Below are positions 26,315 through 52,867 of a stretch of 64,000 nt of DNA, piece by piece. The DNA lies in assembly GCA_965232515.1 (NCBI GenBank), contig CBDDPY010000002.1:6368001-6432000 (forward strand), written 5' to 3'. The position numbers and the translations under genes were made by a program. Numbering within the stretch: the first letter of the stretch is position 1; every line of letters starts with the position of its first letter. This stretch comes from Alphaproteobacteria bacterium. GTDB taxonomy: Bacteria; Pseudomonadota; Alphaproteobacteria; GCA-2731375. The notes under the pieces are model-generated. The model was not told where the DNA came from and did no database searches. It worked only from the letters and a program-made list of their open reading frames with translations.

Positions 26315-27703
26315 TTAGTTGGCCGGCAGCATCTTGCCGGGATTCATGATGTTCTGCGGGTCAATCGCCGTTTTCAGCGCCCGCATGACGCTGATCGCCG
26401 GCCCGTGCTCCTCGGTCATGTATTTGATCTTGCCCAGGCCGACCCCGTGCTCGCCGGTGCAGGTGCCGTCCATCGACAGCGCCCGGGCGACCAGCCGCTC
26501 GTTGATGCGCTCGGCTTCCTTGACCTCGTTCTCGTCGTTCATGTCCAGAACGAAGGCGATGTGGAAGTTGCCGTCGCCGACATGGCCGACGATGGGCGCG
26601 ATCAGGAACGACTCCTCAAGATCCTGTTTGGTCTCGAGAATGCATTCTGCGAGGCGCGAAATCGGCACGCAAACATCAGTGGCCCAGACCTCGCAACCGG
26701 TCCGGAGCGCTTTTGCCGCATAGGCCGCGTCGTGCCGGGCCTGCCAGAGCTTGTTGCGCTGTTCCGGATTGGTCGTCCATTGGAAGTCCGAGCCGCCGAG
26801 ATCGTCGGCGAGCGCTTTCACCATCTCGGCCTGTTCGGCGACGCCGGCGTCGGTGCCGTGGAACTCCAGGAACAGCGTCGGCTTCACCGGATAGTCCAGG
26901 CCGGAAAACTTGTTGACGGCGTCGAGCTGCACCTCGTCCAGCAGCTCGATGCGGGCGATCGGGATGCCGGACTGGATGGTCAGGATCACCGTGTTGACCG
27001 CGCCTTCCAGGTCGTCAAAGGCGACCACGGCGGACGAGATTGCTTCCGGAATCCCGTAGAGCCTGAGCGTGATCTCGGTGATGATGCCGAGTGTGCCCTC
27101 CGAGCCGACGAACAGCCGGGTCAGGTCGTAGCCGGCCGAGGATTTCTTCGCCCGCCGGGCGGTCTTGATGATGCGGCCGTCGGCCATGACCACGGTCAGG
27201 CCCAGCACGTTCTCGCGCATGGTGCCGTAGCGCACGGCGTTGGTGCCGGACGCCCGCGTCGCCGTCATGCCCCCCAGGCTGGCGTCGGCGCCGGGATCGA
27301 TCGGGAAGAACAGGCCGGTGTCGCGCAGGTATTCGTTCAGCTGCTTGCGGGTGACGCCCGGCTGCACCCGGCAGTCCAGGTCCTCGGCGTTCACCTCCAG
27401 CACCTCGTTCATGTTCATGAGGTCGATGGAGATGCCACCTTTTGGCGCGTGCACATGGCCTTCCAGCGACGTGCCGGTGCCGTAGGGGATCACCGGCGTG
27501 TCGTGGGCGGCGCAGATCTTGACGATCTCGGCCACTTCCTCGGTCGAGTTGGCGAAGGCCACCCCGTCGGGCGCCATGGTGGCGTAATAGGCCTCGTCCG
27601 TGCCGTGCCGGTCGCGCACCGCCTGCGACGTGCTCAGGCGGTCGCCCAGCAGCGCCTTCAGCTCGGTGATTACGCTGTCGATTTCCAGCGGCGCAACGCT
27701 CAT
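26315..27703 (-). CDS. FAD-linked oxidase (D-lactate dehydrogenase/GlcD family)
   Basis: GTGTSLEGH, DPGADASLGGM, GSEGTLG, HVGDGNFH, TGEHGVG, NPGK. Confidence 0.92.
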   Translation of the reverse strand: MSVAPLEIDSVITELKALLGDRLSTSQAVRDRHGTDEAYYATMAPDGVAFANSTEEVAEIVKICAAHDTPVIPYGTGTSLEGHVHAPKGGISIDLMNMNEVLEVNAEDLDCRVQPGVTRKQLNEYLRDTGLFFPIDPGADASLGGMTATRASGTNAVRYGTMRENVLGLTVVMADGRIIKTARRAKKSSAGYDLTRLFVGSEGTLGIITEITLRLYGIPEAISSAVVAFDDLEGAVNTVILTIQSGIPIARIELLDEVQLDAVNKFSGLDYPVKPTLFLEFHGTDAGVAEQAEMVKALADDLGGSDFQWTTNPEQRNKLWQARHDAAYAAKALRTGCEVWATDVCVPISRLAECILETKQDLEESFLIAPIVGHVGDGNFHIAFVLDMNDENEVKEAERINERLVARALSMDGTCTGEHGVGLGKIKYMTEEHGPAISVMRALKTAIDPQNIMNPGKMLPAN

Positions 27704-27860
27704 CGTTTCCCACTCCTGTCAGGCGACCCCAGATGTCCTTGCCGACAATGTACGTTCCGGTCTGCCTCCCGGCAACTCCGGCACCCCCGAACCGGCTTGA
27801 GTGAATTGGTTAATCCTGCTTCGATGACGGCATAGGTTAACCAGTCATCAGGAGAGCGCC

Positions 27861-28640
27861 ATGGCCGCGACCGGCAACGTCACCCCGATCCCCAAGGGCA
27901 TGACCCCGGAAGAATGGCAGACCCGCTGCGAGCTCGCGGCCTGCTATCGGCTGACCGCGCTCTACGGCTGGACCGACCTCACCGGCACCCATATCTCGGC
28001 CCGGATCCCCGGCACGGACGAGTTCCTGCTCAATCCCTTCGGCATGCTGTTCGACGAGATCACGGCCTCGGCGCTGATCAAGGTCGATCACGAGGGCAAG
28101 CTGCTGAGCGAGAGCGACTTCCCCATCAACCCGGCCGGCTTCACCATTCATTCGGCCGTGCACATGGCGTCTGCCGACATGAACTGCGTGATGCACACCC
28201 ATACGCGCGCCGGCAACGCGGTCGCCATGCTGAAGGAAGGCCTGCTGCCGCTGAACCAGAAGGCCCTGCTGATCCTCGGCTTCGTCGCCTATCACGACTA
28301 CGAGGGCGCGGCGCTGGATCTCGACGAGCGCGAGCGCATCGTCCGCAATCTCGGCGACAACCGGATCCTGTTCCTGCGCAACCACGGCCTGCTGACGGTG
28401 GGCAAAACCATCGGCGAGGCCTTCGTCTGGATGTACCGGGCCGAGACCGCCTGCCAGTTCCAGGTCGACGCGCTGTCCTGCAGTCGCGAGCTCAACGCGC
28501 TCAGCCAGGAAACCATCGACCACGTCATCGCCCAGGGCCGGGAGATCTTCGCCGAAGGCGGCTTCGCCGCCGCCGGCCACGAATGGCCGGCCCTTATCCG
28601 CCAGCTCGAACGCGAAATCGGCACCGACTACCGGACCTGA
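27861..28640 (+). CDS. Class II aldolase/adducin family protein
   Basis: THISAR, NPAGFTIHSAVH, HTH, LRNHG. Confidence 0.9.
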   Translation: MAATGNVTPIPKGMTPEEWQTRCELAACYRLTALYGWTDLTGTHISARIPGTDEFLLNPFGMLFDEITASALIKVDHEGKLLSESDFPINPAGFTIHSAVHMASADMNCVMHTHTRAGNAVAMLKEGLLPLNQKALLILGFVAYHDYEGAALDLDERERIVRNLGDNRILFLRNHGLLTVGKTIGEAFVWMYRAETACQFQVDALSCSRELNALSQETIDHVIAQGREIFAEGGFAAAGHEWPALIRQLEREIGTDYRT

Positions 28641-28760
28641 CGGCCAGTCGTTGGCCGTTTGCTGGCTGGGCGCAGGGCACACTGCAGAAGCAAGGGTAGA
28701 AAAAACCTGAGATTGTGCTATTTTAACGAATAACGATCCGATTGCTTGAGGAAGCAAGCG

Positions 28761-28877
28761 TTGAGATTTTGCGGATACTTTACGACGACCTGCGGCCCGG
28801 CCCGATTAACGTCGGTCGGGCGTCGCGCCCCGAGCCTTCCGCGCATCATGCCGGGTGGTTCTGACGACGGGCTTTGA
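28761..28877 (+). other. Candidate leader ORF (TTG start, 38 aa; internal ATG at 28848 gives MPGGSDDGL)
   Basis: GAGGA at 28748-28752 before TTG 28761; frame open to TGA 28875-28877; overlaps the candidate antiterminator strand. Confidence 0.3.
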
Positions 28878-28905
28878 TCCGAACGAGATCGACCGCCGTC
28901 GAAGG

Positions 28906-28939
28906 ACCCTCCCACACAGACGTGCTGGGAGGGTTTTTT
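28906..28939 (+). terminator. Intrinsic terminator in the leader of the RNA-repair operon
   Basis: ACCCTCCCA-CAC-agac-GTG-c-TGGGAGGGT running into a T6 tract, ending 16 nt before the first ATG. Confidence 0.75.
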
Positions 28940-28955
28940 GATCGTGGCGTCGTTG

Positions 28956-29777
28956 ATGGAAAAACAGATGGCCAACACGAACGACAGTCAAATTGAGCCT
29001 GATGTGCGTGCGGAGATCGAACGTCGCCTCGCCGAGATCGAGGCGTCAGAGAATGTGCGTGTGCTGTTGGCGGTCGAGTCTGGCAGCAGGGCCTGGGGGT
29101 TTCCGTCGCCGGACAGCGATTACGATGTCCGCTTCGTCTATGCCCGTCCGGTCGATTGGTACCTGTCGATCGACCGCCGCCGCGACGTCATTGAACGGCC
29201 GATCGATGGCGACCTGGATATCAATGGCTGGGATCTCAAGAAGGCGTTGCAGCTTCTGATCAAGCCAAATGCGGTAATGCACGAATGGCTGGAATCGCCG
29301 ATCAAGTATCGAGAGGAGGCGGCTGCCACGGCACGGCTGCGTGCGCTCGCGGACGAAACGCTGCATCGGATACCGGCGACCTATCACTATCTGCATCTGG
29401 GCGAGGGGCAGTGGCGGCGCTTTATCGACGGCCGTGATCGTGTCGCCGTCAAGAAGTACTTCTATGTGCTGCGACCGGCGTTGGCTTTGTGCTGGTTGCG
29501 CCAGAATGATGACGATCGGGTGCCGATGAATATCGCGGAACTGCGGGCCGGCTGTGATTTGCCGGCCGATGTTGATGCCTTCCTCGACGACCTGATCGAA
29601 CGTAAGCGCAGCACCAAGGAGCTCGGGCAAGGACCGCGGATTCCGGCTCTCGACCGATTTGTTACGGCCGCGTTCGCGGCAGCGCGAGAGCGCGCGTACT
29701 CGCCGCGGCGGCCGGTGAAGGGCCTATTCGAGCAGGCAAACCAGTTGTTCCGCGATCTCGTGCTCGATCAAAGGTGA
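28956..29777 (+). CDS. Pol-beta superfamily nucleotidyltransferase (RlaP/YcgL, Nuc-transf family)
   Basis: AVESGSRAWGFPSPDSDYDVRFVY (GS..DxD), DINGWDLKKAL, EWLESP, KKYFYVLRP; start 28956 or 28968. Confidence 0.88.
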   Translation: MEKQMANTNDSQIEPDVRAEIERRLAEIEASENVRVLLAVESGSRAWGFPSPDSDYDVRFVYARPVDWYLSIDRRRDVIERPIDGDLDINGWDLKKALQLLIKPNAVMHEWLESPIKYREEAAATARLRALADETLHRIPATYHYLHLGEGQWRRFIDGRDRVAVKKYFYVLRPALALCWLRQNDDDRVPMNIAELRAGCDLPADVDAFLDDLIERKRSTKELGQGPRIPALDRFVTAAFAAARERAYSPRRPVKGLFEQANQLFRDLVLDQR

Positions 29778-29788
29778 GGTAGGCTCAA

Positions 29789-31183
29789 GTGCTGCTGACC
29801 ATTTCCACCGATCATCGGCCGGCGACGGATCTCGGCTTCCTGCTGATGAAGCATCCGGATCGTGTGCACGCGCGCGAGCTGGCGTTCGGCACGGCGACGA
29901 TCTTCTATCCCGAAGCGGCGGCCGAGCGCTGCACGGCGGCACTTACGCTGGATATCGATCCCGTCCGTCTCGTGCGTGGCGGCGGCGCGCGGGTGGGAGG
30001 GCTGTTCGACCAATACGTGACCGATCGCCCGTATGCCGTATCGTCATTTCTGTCGGTCGCCATCTCCCGGCTGCTCGGCACGGCGATGGGTGGGCGCAGC
30101 CGGGAGCGGCAGGAGCTGGCCGATACGCCGATACCGCTGACGGCGATGCTGACACCGCTGCCCTGCCGGGGCGGTCCGGAGATCCTGGAACGTCTGTTTA
30201 CACCGCTCGGCTACGAGGTCACAACGCGGCGGCACGCGCTCGATCTGCATCATCCCGATTGGGGCGACAGCGTCTATGTGACCGCGACCCTGTCGGGCCG
30301 TGTCCGGCTGGCCGATCTGCTGACGCACCTCTTCGTGCTGGTGCCGGTGCTCGACAATCAAAAGCACTACTATGTCGGCACGGACGAGGTCGAAAAGCTG
30401 TTGGCGAAAGGGCAGGGCTGGCTCGAACACCACCCAGCCAAGCAGTTGATTGCGCGGCGTTACCTCAAGCACCGGGCCGGCTTGACGCGTGCCGCGCTCG
30501 AGCAGTTGGCCGAACAAGTTGAGCCGCAGACCCCGGAACTCCACGAAGCCCAGGAGGCCGAAGAGGAGGCGTTGGAGGTGCCGATGCGCCTTAACGACCT
30601 TCGCCTGGAGGCGGTGACCGAAGCACTGCTGGCGACGGGCGCCGCGCGCGTGCTCGATCTCGGCTGCGGCGAGGGCAAGCTGTTGCGGCGACTGCTGCGT
30701 GAAAAGCAGTTCGTACGTCTCGTCGGCGTCGATACGGCGCCGAAGGTGCTGGAGCGGGCTGCCCAGCGACTGAAGCTGGAACAGATGCGCCCGCGGCAGC
30801 GCGAACGTATCGAGCTGCTGCAGGGCTCCCTGGTCTATCGTGATGAACGCCTCAATGGCTTCGATGCCGCCGCCGTCATTGAAGTCATCGAGCACATGGA
30901 TGTCGAGCGCCTGCCGGCGTTCGAGCGGGCGCTGTTCGGCGACGCGCGGCCGCAATCCGTCATCGTGACCACGCCGAACCGCGAGTTCAACGCGACGTTC
31001 GAACGCTTGACGTCGGACCGACTGCGCCATCCGGACCATCGTTTCGAATGGACGCGGGCCGAGTTTGCGGCCTGGGCGACGGCGGTGGCCGACCGCTATC
31101 AATACGCCGCCCACTTCGACGGGATCGGAGAGCCGCATCCCGACCATGGCGCGCCGACACAAATGGCGGTCTTCTCGCGATGA
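29789..31183 (+). CDS. hen1: Bacterial Hen1 3'-terminal RNA 2'-O-methyltransferase with ligase-activating N-domain
   Basis: MLLTIST..PATDLGFLL.KHP N-domain, DQYVTDRPY, VLDLGCGEG, EVIEH, TTPN, RHPDHRFEWTRAEF. Confidence 0.95.
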   Translation: MLLTISTDHRPATDLGFLLMKHPDRVHARELAFGTATIFYPEAAAERCTAALTLDIDPVRLVRGGGARVGGLFDQYVTDRPYAVSSFLSVAISRLLGTAMGGRSRERQELADTPIPLTAMLTPLPCRGGPEILERLFTPLGYEVTTRRHALDLHHPDWGDSVYVTATLSGRVRLADLLTHLFVLVPVLDNQKHYYVGTDEVEKLLAKGQGWLEHHPAKQLIARRYLKHRAGLTRAALEQLAEQVEPQTPELHEAQEAEEEALEVPMRLNDLRLEAVTEALLATGAARVLDLGCGEGKLLRRLLREKQFVRLVGVDTAPKVLERAAQRLKLEQMRPRQRERIELLQGSLVYRDERLNGFDAAAVIEVIEHMDVERLPAFERALFGDARPQSVIVTTPNREFNATFERLTSDRLRHPDHRFEWTRAEFAAWATAVADRYQYAAHFDGIGEPHPDHGAPTQMAVFSR

Positions 31184-33741
31184 CAAGCCACACGATCTCC
31201 ATCCCGGAATACTGCCTGGTGCTGCTGGTCGGGGCGTCAGGATCGGGCAAGTCGACGTTCGCGGCGCGGCATTTCAAGCCGACCGAGATCATTTCCTCGG
31301 ACCGCTGCCGCGCCGTTGTCGCCGATGACGAGTCGGACCAATCGGCCACGGCGGACGCGTTCGAGCTTGTCCATTTCATTGCCGAGAAGCGACTGAACGC
31401 GCGACGGCTGGCGGTCATCGACGCCACGAACGTTCGGCCCGAGGACCGGCGCTCATTCGTCGATCTGGCGAAGCGCTACCACGCGTTGGTCGTGGCCTTC
31501 GTCTTCGATATGCCGGAAGCGCTGTGTCACGAGCGGAACGCCGGACGGCCCGAGCGCGACTTCGGCCGTCACGTCGTCAGCAACCATCTGCGCGCGCTGA
31601 AACGCGGCATCAGGCGCATGGACCGGGAAGGCATTCGCTTCGTCTACCGTTTCTCGGAGCCAGCCCGGGTCGACGAGGCAATCGTCGAACGCCAAAAACT
31701 CTGGGTCGACAAGCGCGATGAAGGCGGGCCGTTCGACATCATCGGCGACGTGCACGGCTGTGCCGATGAGCTCGAGAAGCTTCTGACAAACCTTGGATAT
31801 CGCATTGATATCGAAGGAACATCGTCCGGATCGAAATACTCGGTCATACCGCCGGTAGGGCGCAAAGTCGTCTTTCTCGGCGATCTTGTCGACCGTGGCC
31901 CGCGCGTCCCGGACACCTTGCGGCTGGCGAAGACCATGGTCGATGCGGGCCAGGCGCTCTGCGTCCTCGGCAATCATGAAGCCAAGCTGGTCCGGAAGCT
32001 GAAGGGCCGGAACGTGAAGCTGACGCACGGTCTTGCCGAAAGCGTTGCCCAAATCGAGGCGCAGCACGACGGCTTCGTCGACGAGATGCTGCCGTTCATG
32101 GACGGGCTGATCAGCCATTACGTTCTCGATGGCGGCAAGCTTATCGTCGCCCATGCGGGCCTGCGCGAGGAAATGCAGAACCGGTCGTCGGGCAAGGTCC
32201 GGTCGTTTGCGCTCTACGGCGATACGACGGGCGAGACCGACGAGTTCGGCTTGCCGGTGCGGCACAATTGGGCGGCCGAGTATGGCGGCCGGGCGAAGGT
32301 GGTTTACGGTCACACGCCGGTGCCGGATGCCGAGTGGCTGAATGGCACGATCTGCATCGATACTGGTTGCGTCTTCGGCGGCAAGCTGACGGCCCTGCGC
32401 TATCCGGAAATGGAGCTGGTCGAGGTGCCGGCGGCCCAAGTCTATTGCGAGCCGGTGCGTCCGATCGCGGCGCCGAAAAGCAGTGCCGCGACCGACGATA
32501 CGCAGCTGCAGTTGTCGGACGTGATCGGGAAACGTGTCATCGGCACGCGGCTGAGCCGGTCGGTGACCATCCGCGAAGAACAGGCCGCGGCAGCCCTCGA
32601 GGTAATGAGCCGCTTTGCCATCGATCCGCGCTGGTTGATCCACCTGCCGCCGACCATGTCGCCGTCGGAGACATCCACGCGTGACGGCTATCTCGAGCAT
32701 CCGGACGAGGCATTGGACTATTTCCGCCGTCATGGCGTCGGCACCGTGATTTGCGAGGAAAAGCATATGGGCTCGCGCGCCGTCATGGTCGTTTGCCGGG
32801 ATGATTCGACGCCCAGGAAACGTTTCGGCGTCGACGGTTCACGGCGCGGCGTCGTCTACAGCCGGACCGGCCGGGCCTTCTTCCCGGACCGGGAGGCCGA
32901 GGCGGCCGTGATCGATCGTGTTGCATCGGCCGCGAGCCAAGCGGGCTGGTGGGACGAGTTCGCGACGGACTGGTTCTGCCTGGATGCGGAAGTCATGCCC
33001 TGGTCCGTAAAGGCGCAGTCCTTGATCGATCAGCAATACGCCCCGGTCGCCGCCGCCGCCGAGGCCGGCCTGCAGGCGGCGGTCGATGCGCTGGCGCTGG
33101 CCCTGGACCGCGGCGTCGATGTGGCCGGGCTGGCAGAGCGCTTCCGGCAACGTCAGACGCGTGCACGAGCCTATCGGGATGCCTACAACAACTATGTCTG
33201 GCCGGTCTCGGACCTGGACGACCTGCGCATCGCGCCCTTCCATCTGCTGGCCAGCGAGGGTGCGGTGCACGCCGACAAGGATCACCAGTGGCACATGAAG
33301 GTACTGACGCGCTTGTGTAATGGCGATCCGGCGTTGTTGTTCGCGACAACCCATCGTGTCGTCGACCTGTCCGACGAGGCTGGCGTCACCGCCGCGATGG
33401 CGTGGTGGGAAGAACTGACGGCGGCCGGCGGCGAGGGCATGGTCGTCAAGCCACTCGACTTCGTGGCGCGCGGCAAGCGTGGCCTTGTGCAGCCCGCGTT
33501 GAAATGCCGGGGCCGGGAATACCTGCGGATTATCTATGGGCCCGACTACGATGCGCCGGAAAACCTGAACCGCCTGCGCCAACGCGGCCTGTCATTGAAG
33601 CGATCGATGGCGTTGCGTGAGTTCGCGCTAGGCCTGGAATCGCTGCAGCGGTTCGTGGACCGGGAACCGTTGAGCCGCGTCCACGAATGCGTCTTCGGTG
33701 TGCTGGCCATGGAGACCGAGCCCGTCGATCCGCGGCTTTGA
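31180..33741 (+). CDS. pnkp: Bacterial Pnkp: polynucleotide kinase, metallophosphatase and adenylyltransferase/ligase
   Basis: GASGSGKST/ISSD kinase; GDVHG, GDLVDRG, GNHE phosphatase; EEKHMGSR, EGMVVKP, LKCRG ligase motifs; ATGA overlap with hen1. Confidence 0.96.
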   Translation: MTSHTISIPEYCLVLLVGASGSGKSTFAARHFKPTEIISSDRCRAVVADDESDQSATADAFELVHFIAEKRLNARRLAVIDATNVRPEDRRSFVDLAKRYHALVVAFVFDMPEALCHERNAGRPERDFGRHVVSNHLRALKRGIRRMDREGIRFVYRFSEPARVDEAIVERQKLWVDKRDEGGPFDIIGDVHGCADELEKLLTNLGYRIDIEGTSSGSKYSVIPPVGRKVVFLGDLVDRGPRVPDTLRLAKTMVDAGQALCVLGNHEAKLVRKLKGRNVKLTHGLAESVAQIEAQHDGFVDEMLPFMDGLISHYVLDGGKLIVAHAGLREEMQNRSSGKVRSFALYGDTTGETDEFGLPVRHNWAAEYGGRAKVVYGHTPVPDAEWLNGTICIDTGCVFGGKLTALRYPEMELVEVPAAQVYCEPVRPIAAPKSSAATDDTQLQLSDVIGKRVIGTRLSRSVTIREEQAAAALEVMSRFAIDPRWLIHLPPTMSPSETSTRDGYLEHPDEALDYFRRHGVGTVICEEKHMGSRAVMVVCRDDSTPRKRFGVDGSRRGVVYSRTGRAFFPDREAEAAVIDRVASAASQAGWWDEFATDWFCLDAEVMPWSVKAQSLIDQQYAPVAAAAEAGLQAAVDALALALDRGVDVAGLAERFRQRQTRARAYRDAYNNYVWPVSDLDDLRIAPFHLLASEGAVHADKDHQWHMKVLTRLCNGDPALLFATTHRVVDLSDEAGVTAAMAWWEELTAAGGEGMVVKPLDFVARGKRGLVQPALKCRGREYLRIIYGPDYDAPENLNRLRQRGLSLKRSMALREFALGLESLQRFVDREPLSRVHECVFGVLAMETEPVDPRL

Positions 33742-52361: not shown

Positions 52362-52695
52362 AGTGGGGGGCTTCTGTTGCCCGGTGCCCCCCGAAACCGC
52401 GCTTACCTGTCTAATTAGGCAGCGAGCGCCATTTCGTTATCATTGGCACTTGTAGAAACGGCCCGATAACGGCGGAACCATGCCGGGCACAAACCGTACC
52501 TTTATTACGCGCGTCGATCCTGTTTCGCCCCCATCAGCAACGCACTCGTCAACGCCCTGTTAACCCTGTCTGCAGGAACTCCTGCGGGTGCTGCGATTCG
52601 GGCGAATGCGCTGATGGTGGAGGCGCCGGGTACCGCCCCCGGGTCCGCTACGTCTATTCCGTACGGCGTTTAGCGCCATAGCCGGATATCTCCGG
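52362..52695 (-). ncRNA. ssrA: Circularly permuted two-piece tmRNA; tag (A)ANDNEMALAA
   Basis: Acceptor piece ends GGCGCCTCCACCA at 52615; coding piece starts GGGGGCGAAACAGGATCGAC at 52532; tag frame 52447-52415; outer ends approximate. Confidence 0.95.
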
Positions 52696-52867
52696 CACCC
52701 TAAATATAGGCGTTTTCAAGCCAAATCGGAAGGGGCAGGGGCGGCGCGCAATGGCGGCCTTCGGGGGCGGTTGGCAGGCCGGCGATCGAAGGAGTAGGTT
52801 GCCGAAAGCCGTCCAGCCCGGTCGCTCGATGCCGGCACGGTGGCGGAATGGCTCGCCGGAGTAGCAC

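Follow-up and report, generated by a model that had tools for sequence, protein, structure and literature searches.

A conserved leader with a short open reading frame, predicted to act as a ribosome-dependent attenuator, precedes RNA-repair genes in Alphaproteobacteria

What controls the expression of a bacterial RNA-repair operon, and what is the signal to which it responds? To our knowledge, the inducers of bacterial Pnkp/Hen1 and of many RtcB systems, and hence the damage that they counter, are largely unknown outside the RtcR-controlled cases. The question is raised by a locus in the window, by which we mean the whole 64,000-nucleotide (nt) stretch of DNA analysed (positions 6,368,001 to 6,432,000 of contig CBDDPY010000002.1, from an alphaproteobacterial genome of 7.39 Mb that is 96% complete), in which a class II aldolase gene ends at position 28640 and is followed by a 315-nt gap and then by three consecutive plus-strand genes encoding RlaP (PF10127), Hen1 and Pnkp. 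RlaP enzymes are described as adding 1-2 nucleotides at the 3' ends of damaged RNA (10.64898/2025.12.29.696909), and RlaP, Hen1 and Pnkp are therefore all taken here as RNA-repair genes. An earlier note on this DNA had proposed that the gap contains a structured leader with an upstream open reading frame (uORF), a candidate antiterminator and a terminator. We find it likely that the segment 28742-28939 is a transcribed leader of the RlaP-Hen1-Pnkp operon that acts as a ribosome-dependent, four-region transcription attenuator, and that it probably turns on the RNA-repair genes when protein synthesis falters.

Folded as one unit, the stretch 28740-28945 has a predicted free energy of -91.2 kcal/mol (z -3.5), and all six of the features listed in the earlier note (the terminator, two pairings that compete or combine with it, the open frame, a Shine-Dalgarno dyad and a further hairpin) were recovered at the same coordinates (Table 1). 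The terminator, at 28906-28939, consists of the arm ACCCTCCC (28906-28913), a loop, the arm GGGAGGG (28927-28933) and T6 (28934-28939); its hairpin is matched in stability by none of 200 shuffled sequences, and 16 nt separate the end of its U-tract from the ATG at 28956 that opens the RlaP frame. The imperfect pairing of 28853-28866 with 28897-28909 and the helix CGACGG/CCGTCG, which had been listed separately, fold as a single imperfect helix (28853-28870/28896-28911) enclosing a small hairpin, with five of 200 shuffles folding equally well. This putative antiterminator shares with the terminator the bases 28906-28911, which are the bottom of the terminator 5' arm, and the stop codon of the uORF is located in its apical part. 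The uORF may begin with the TTG at 28761 or with the in-frame ATG at 28848, both of which are present, and the Shine-Dalgarno-like GAGG does form the loop of the dyad TTGCTT-GAGG-AAGCAA. The hairpin around GCCCGA..TCGGGC (28800-28821) is also there, and by itself it does not go beyond chance when compared with shuffles; the other members described below have a GC-rich hairpin at the equivalent place in staged folds, and it may serve as a pausing or timing element. Another local hairpin (28832-28861), which could sequester the 5' strand of the antiterminator, is present in the minimum-energy folds of both the transcript ending at the stop codon and the full leader.

A BLAST search with the 315-nt intergenic DNA against 40 relatives returned the window itself only, with a single copy in its own genome at that level; this says little, because the leader is too diverged for a DNA search, and the search for related loci was therefore anchored on the RlaP protein. 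In the genome collection this gave 80 RlaP-anchored loci (L003-L082) with protein identities of no more than 60%, in which the gene orders are RlaP-Hen1-Pnkp, Hen1-RlaP-Pnkp, RtcB-RlaP(-Hen1-Pnkp) or RlaP alone. When their upstream regions were read, a similar element was seen in eight of them (L003, L004, L005, L011, L012, L016, L017 and L024), and with the members added by the model searches the total is 16 loci including the window, from several alphaproteobacterial lineages, in which the first repair gene is RlaP, Hen1 or RtcB. The element lies before RlaP in the window, L003 and L004, and also in L024, with one intervening open reading frame (ORF); before Hen1 in L011, L016, L017 and L115; and before RtcB in L005, L012, L104 and L109. 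The common layout is a promoter and 5' hairpin, a uORF, a G-rich strand within the uORF that pairs with the terminator 5' arm, and the terminator itself, whose U-tract ends roughly 18-100 nt from the first gene in the members other than the window; because this gap is too short for a promoter, the operon must be transcribed through the terminator. The earlier note had held that a lack of conserved structure or uORF in homologues would count against its proposal, and the layout is instead found to recur at 15 other loci. The comparison indicates that the leader is conserved with the downstream repair genes and not with the upstream gene, and it is mainly this layout, kept across other genomes, by which chance appears to be excluded.

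A covariance model (R1) built from the eight loci and the window gives its nine seeds bit scores of 63.6-84.6 and everything else in 98 sources scores of 28.6 or less; run over 80 new RlaP-anchored metagenome loci, it adds L115, L104 and, weakly, L109. A second model (R2), built from 12 members with the stand-alone RtcB leaders excluded, yields four matches besides the window leader in 31 related genomes, three of them immediately upstream of RtcB: one in the window's own genome, one in another genome of its genus and one in a genome of its family. The second copy in the window's own genome (G000:C2:4298138-4298248, minus strand; locus L188) lies about 55 nt before RtcB and has a 37-codon uORF, the G-rich strand GGAGGG and the terminator CCCCUCC..GGAGGGG-U6; the RtcB gene behind it is apparently monocistronic, the next large downstream ORF being on the opposite strand. 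A wider model (R3), run on 150 genomes drawn evenly from the class, contributed one further true member before RtcB (G181), and 12 of its 14 non-self matches are ordinary terminators. The element is found in none of 93 RlaP-only loci. An alignment-free screen (a terminator within 170 nt and an ORF ending 46-80 nt before it) flagged six of these 93 loci and was dropped, as real leaders were not separated from the ordinary terminators of upstream genes. The same screen pointed to L053:1930-2035, missed by the models and located upstream of an RtcB-RlaP pair, which may be a diverged member; in it an ORF with the end ..GQERG* lies 69 nt before a CCCCUG..CAGGGG-U7 terminator that is itself 47 nt before RtcB. 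Extra ORFs belonging to no Pfam family lie between the leader and RlaP in L024 (3608-3976, 122 amino acids) and between RtcB and RlaP in L012 (3234-4004, 256 amino acids).

Between clades, the alternative helices are seen to co-vary. In 12 members the terminator helix is 95.2% paired, with compensatory changes in two of its seven pairs, and in six of the 12 the antiterminator is stabler than 500 shuffles (p<=0.04). Its strands change by clade together with their partners, as in GGGAGGGU:ACCCUCCC (L003), GGGUGAAA:UUUCACCC (L011), GGGCGAA:UUCGCCC (L016) and GAAGGGUUUC:GAAACCCUUC (L109). If the G-rich strand (about 28853-28870 in the window, the 3' part of the uORF) is called region 2, the terminator arms correspond to region 3 (28896-28911) and region 4 (28927-28933), and region 1 lies upstream; in most of the other members region 2 can pair alternatively with the first ~20 nt of the uORF, a region 1 partner that is clear in L003, L104, L005, L012, L109, L011, L188 and L185. 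The mean energy of this 1:2 pairing is -19.6 kcal/mol for cognate and -15.4 kcal/mol for non-cognate combinations, and none of 20000 permutations reaches the cognate mean. Staged folds give the order 1:2, then 2:3, then 3:4, with equivalents of the antiterminator in most members. Taken together, the 1:2, 2:3 and 3:4 pairings describe a four-region arrangement of the trp attenuator kind. An idea that GGGAGGG acts as a Shine-Dalgarno sequence, or CCCUCCC as an anti-Shine-Dalgarno mimic sensing 30S subunits, was dropped, the sphingomonad and L109 variants being different.

Counterparts of the uORF are present at all 16 loci and are mostly of 30-46 codons, with 23 codons from the sole in-frame ATG in L016 and L115, which are sphingomonad loci cut by contig ends. 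Its length is kept despite nucleotide divergence of ~40%, both among L003, L104, L005 and L012 (39 codons each) and between L188 and L186 (37 codons each); there are 38 codons in the window and L024, 37 in L011, and 35 in L017 and G181. The distance from the uORF stop codon to the U-tract is 58-65 nt in all 16 loci (58-63 nt in 12, and 63-65 nt in three later RtcB leaders), and the stop codon is always in the apical part of the hairpin enclosed by the antiterminator. In the AT-rich L017 only the uORF frame is open, and the other frames have four stops each per 38 codons, which puts the probability of a frame being open by chance at ~0.015. The sphingomonad peptides resemble one another fairly well towards the C-terminus, the peptide sequence is not conserved between clades, and the window peptide has no match in Pfam. 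Frame, length and end point are thus seen to be kept and the product is not, which is the pattern expected of a purely regulatory frame. Tiny ORFs of 2-3 codons after the G-rich strand, considered as candidates in their own right, turned out to be the ends of this longer conserved frame.

Candidate promoters lie ahead of the leaders. In the window the best-scoring hexamer pair matches the consensus at four of six bases in each hexamer and is thus weak, and it would place the start at about 28741; in nine members boxes resembling TTGAC(A/T/C)-N17-(C/T)ATAAC were found by score and by eye 45-86 nt upstream of the uORF, and in several of the others small 5' hairpins follow the candidate promoters (by eye). 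A consensus promoter and terminator scan of 27500-30000 called nothing, its limits (a terminator loop of at most 8 nt and a strict -10 rule) being such that it misses this terminator and boxes of the CATAAC type. Four RNA-library runs of one study, represented by Logan contigs from a strain 95-99% alike, bear on the start of the operon: in three of the four runs a contig extends from 28916 to 29152-29173, across the U-tract and into RlaP. These contigs have a depth of 2-6.7 and DNA carry-over is possible, and 28480-28915 is uncovered, a gap that is uninformative. If they are RNA, their crossing of the U-tract means that the operon transcript starts upstream of 28939, a weak hint that runs counter to a start downstream of 28939, which the earlier note had named as a ground for rejecting its proposal.

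Table 1. Features of the leader and of the operon behind it (window coordinates)
Feature	Position	Strand	Support or detail
Candidate sigma-70-type promoter, CTGAGA (28707-28712), N16, AATAAC (28729-28734)	28707..28734	+	best hexamer pair by score
5' hairpin TTGCTT-GAGG-AAGCAA, Shine-Dalgarno-like GAGG (28748-28751) as loop	28742..28757	+	-5.9 kcal/mol, z -2.35
uORF, TTG start, 38 codons, TGA 28875-28877	28761..28877	+	peptide MRFCGYFTTTCGPARLTSVGRRAPSLPRIMPGGSDDGL; in-frame ATG 28848
Central GC-rich hairpin within the uORF	28791..28827	+	-21.2 kcal/mol, z -1.4
Local hairpin, regions 1:2, anti-antiterminator candidate	28832..28861	+	minimum-energy folds
Putative antiterminator hairpin, regions 2:3, strands 28853-28870 / 28896-28911	28853..28911	+	-27.7 kcal/mol, z -2.2
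Predicted intrinsic terminator, regions 3:4, stem 28905-28935, U-tract 28934-28939	28905..28939	+	-22.1 kcal/mol, z -5.4
RlaP nucleotidyltransferase gene, first of the controlled operon	28956..29777	+	Pfam PF10127, E 1.8e-83
Hen1 RNA 2'-O-methyltransferase gene	29789..31183	+	Pfam Hen1_L, E 1.8e-106, and methyltransferase domains
Pnkp gene (kinase, phosphatase, ligase domains)	31159..33741	+	Pfam PNKP_ligase, E 1.2e-182, AAA_33, Metallophos

The sequence features, their conservation and co-variation, and the link with RNA-repair genes are established as far as sequence comparison can do so; uORF translation and the transcription start, as well as the direction of the switch and the signal that throws it, are read from the layout, which suggests the following scheme. 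Transcription would start near 28741, and the uORF would be translated as RNA polymerase advances. Region 2 would then choose between region 1 and region 3, its pairing with region 3 being the antiterminator. If the ribosome keeps pace with the polymerase and arrives at the stop codon, it would mask region 2, so that regions 3 and 4 pair and transcription terminates 16 nt short of the RlaP frame. A ribosome that has initiated and lags or stalls earlier in the uORF, at a damaged tRNA, on a damaged rRNA or at some other block to elongation, would leave region 2 free to form the antiterminator, the base of the terminator stem would be lost, and read-through would follow. Without a ribosome on the leader, region 2 would stay paired with region 1, and the transcript would again terminate. 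A long frame lacking control codons would report the general speed of elongation, which would suit genes that mend tRNA and rRNA.

Several observations weigh against this interpretation, and we set them out together. The covariance models are unspecific at 23-32 bits, and the element is present in only eight of 25 Hen1/Pnkp clusters whose upstream DNA extends for 250 nt or more (two more such clusters, with shorter upstream DNA, also carry it) and is recognisable in only one of 18 RtcB+RlaP clusters. The antiterminator is not better than shuffles in L104 (0.50), L004 (0.20), the window (0.18) and L024 (0.14), and the long-range 1:2 pairing is without support in the window, L004 and L017, the window having the local hairpin at 28832-28861; moreover, kinship among the sequences means that the significance of both the shuffle and the permutation comparisons is overstated. 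In 15 of 400 other genomes of the class the same stem sequence is found in terminators of the ordinary kind. As for the uORF, in the window it starts with TTG and the GAGG sits in a hairpin loop, and in the GC-rich members chance alone would quite often yield an open frame of this length, 38 codons (P 0.2-1.0 each). Support for coding from codon-position bias was sought and none was present: related uORFs show no excess of changes at third positions (12/17/14, 16/19/18 and 6/9/5 at codon positions 1/2/3), and their codon changes are 11-26 non-synonymous against 2-4 synonymous. The peptide accordingly appears not to be under selection, because substitutions are even over codon positions and mostly change the residue, and what points to coding is solely the frame, its length and the position of its stop. 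The member peptides contain no tandem control codons and share no run of a single residue, and because of this lack of control codons we do not class the leader as an amino-acid-sensing attenuator.

It is in this light that other explanations of the leader have to be weighed. One is a terminator/antiterminator switch flipped by the binding of a protein, of a small ligand or of an RNA (a tRNA fragment, for instance), with the open frame incidental; RNA-repair operons elsewhere respond to tRNA fragments via RtcR, the alternative helices are the best-supported part of the leader, and an unconserved peptide in GC-rich DNA, where open frames are common, would sit easily with such a switch. We regard it as unlikely, given that the antiterminator encloses a variable hairpin lacking any conserved aptamer-like core, that there is no match in Rfam, that frame, length and stop position persist despite deep divergence, also in AT-rich members, in which an open frame is unlikely to arise by chance, and that the stop codon is invariably apical in the enclosed hairpin. 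That the element is instead a stand-alone small RNA or micro-protein gene, the repair genes being expressed by unregulated leakage through its terminator, seems to us less probable still. Promoter-like boxes of its own, a strong terminator and the fairly similar peptide C-termini of the sphingomonads would accord with such a gene, and a terminated leader of ~200 nt would be formed on either view and might work in trans; a plain terminator, however, would have no need of a conserved and co-varying exclusive pairing with its base, the element always stands directly before RNA-repair genes, whichever of them comes first, with gaps too short for a promoter, and the peptide is neither conserved between clades nor assigned to a Pfam family. 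The earlier note had left room for a riboswitch or a stand-alone small RNA, and neither finds support in Rfam, where the best match in 28000-29600 is Cis90_sRNA at 13.3 bits against a gathering score of 50, and where nothing reaches the gathering score in the window leader or in 11 member loci.

The simplest explanation, that the hairpin at 28906-28939 is merely the terminator of the aldolase gene and the other structures are chance products of GC-rich intergenic DNA, we consider highly improbable. It has in its favour that some of the structures, taken singly, do not exceed shuffles (28790-28830, z -1.4) and that the same stem is an ordinary, often two-way, terminator in other alphaproteobacteria. 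The comparative data already contradict it: the aldolase gene stops at 28640, 265 nt before the hairpin, and is absent from all 80 related loci, whereas the leader accompanies the repair genes; the leader is also preceded by its own candidate promoters and occurs a second time, before RtcB, in the same genome. The stem was searched for as ACCCTCCC-N6-22-GGGAGGGTTTT, which occurs in 16 of 401 genomes of the class, the window's own included, and its use as a mark of the family was dropped, since the 15 others have no RtcB, RlaP, Hen1 or Pnkp within 1.5 kb. In these 15 genomes (L083-L103) the ACCCTCCC...GGGAGGGTTTT stem is an ordinary terminator, often a two-way one, and G395 has three identical copies of the stem sequence within a longer repeat.

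A ribosome-dependent attenuator is thus the reading that we favour, and it can be compared with known systems. In the literature searched, no leader or attenuator is described for Pnkp/Hen1 or for the RtcB of alphaproteobacteria, as the earlier note had also supposed for Pnkp-Hen1 operons. RNA-repair genes are likewise the targets in RtcR/sigma-54 control of rtcBA, where a sigma-54 promoter is activated by the protein RtcR; the leader would seem to be a different solution, one that works in cis, and no member of the RtcR family was found in the window's genome, at its 96% completeness, with an E. coli control giving a match. As in rsr-rtcB operons with the Y RNA YrlA and Rsr, a non-coding RNA adjoins RNA-repair genes; unlike YrlA, the leader has no Rsr gene nearby (its neighbours are the aldolase and RlaP) and no tRNA-like domain, and it has a terminator directly before the genes. 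YrlA gives no Rfam match in 28000-29600 up to E 10, and none at the gathering score in the 11 member loci. Two relatives of the same family present other arrangements: in L191 (G010:C11) RtcB is preceded by a sigma-54 box, TGGCAC-N5-TTGC (TGGCACGAGGCTTGC), and in L192 (G009:C6) RtcB follows tRNA-like and Y-RNA-like pieces, as read from the sequence, behind an rsr-like gene. Because the leader, the sigma-54 box, and the tRNA-like pieces with the rsr-like gene each precede RtcB, at least three kinds of RtcB control are seen to coexist in this bacterial family, to judge by their predicted elements. In leaders of the ermC and cat type, ribosome stalling on a short frame remodels downstream RNA and switches on a gene for translation stress. 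Stalling on a short leader frame would be the switch here too; many of those leaders, unlike this one, act on translation through a specific arrest peptide and a drug, whereas here the peptide is not conserved and the proposed output is transcriptional read-through.

The closest known case, by analogy, is the PA5471.1 leader of armZ. In a review, the Pseudomonas aeruginosa gene armZ (PA5471), which encodes an RtcB-like ligase, is described as governed by the PA5471.1 leader peptide through attenuation on ribosome stalling, a mechanism that the same review says still needs confirmation (PMC12057347). Both have, on that description, a small leader frame and predicted terminators before a gene of the RtcB family, with ribosome stalling as the proposed trigger. 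PA5471.1 belongs to Pseudomonas, in another class, and unlike it the leader described here would control RlaP-Hen1-Pnkp as well as RtcB; it also has a uORF mostly of 30-46 codons and a co-varying four-region layout across lineages, the two being compared by description only. With the trp, his and leu attenuators, such as E. coli trpL, the leader shares a leader peptide, exclusive 1:2, 2:3 and 3:4 pairings, an intrinsic terminator immediately ahead of the operon's first gene, and a stop codon at a site where a ribosome finishing translation would mask region 2, as far as these are set out in PMC4007540. It is unlike them in having no runs of codons for a single amino acid and in having targets that repair RNA; its uORF is about three times the length of the 14-residue trp leader given in the same source (PMC4007540), and its signal is likely to be a general slowing of elongation, as against the shortage of a single charged tRNA. 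In the passages of that source consulted, leader peptides are listed only for amino-acid and tRNA-synthetase genes (PMC4007540).

Some details of the neighbouring genes may be added. The Pnkp ORF as listed begins at 31048, with a 136-nt overlap with the end of Hen1; the real start is probably near 31159, because similarity to other Pnkp proteins begins at about that position (a tblastn match runs from query residue 38). The RNA-library contigs of the near relative differ by TG>AA at 28954-28955 and by one extra nucleotide inserted after 28959, and since the insertion would shift the frame from 28956, the ATG at 28968 is perhaps the likelier RlaP start. Antisense ORFs at 28718-28978 and 28806-28991 have no match in Pfam. 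Elsewhere in the window, at 52362-52735 on the minus strand, is a tmRNA gene of the two-piece alphaproteobacterial type (Rfam RF01849, 258 bits).

Attenuation by leader peptides is itself already known; the leader is new for Pnkp/Hen1/RlaP and for this bacterial class, and its ~200-nt element with uORF, which neither Rfam nor Pfam contains, would be a candidate for a new family entry. More tentatively, and with rather less confidence than we place in the attenuator itself, we suggest that the leader family may be an RtcR-independent sensor of RNA damage, in which the uORF would gauge elongation speed, and ribotoxins that cut tRNA or rRNA, like anything else that slows ribosomes, would induce Pnkp/Hen1/RlaP and RtcB together, the two copies in this genome wiring a small regulon in cis. 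As a cis-acting element, the leader offers a direct handle on the natural stress that induces the repair genes. If our interpretation is correct, it would be a second, independent case, beside that of P. aeruginosa armZ, in which genes of the RNA-repair type are tied to ribosome performance, and this logic of leader peptide and ribosome performance would then look general.

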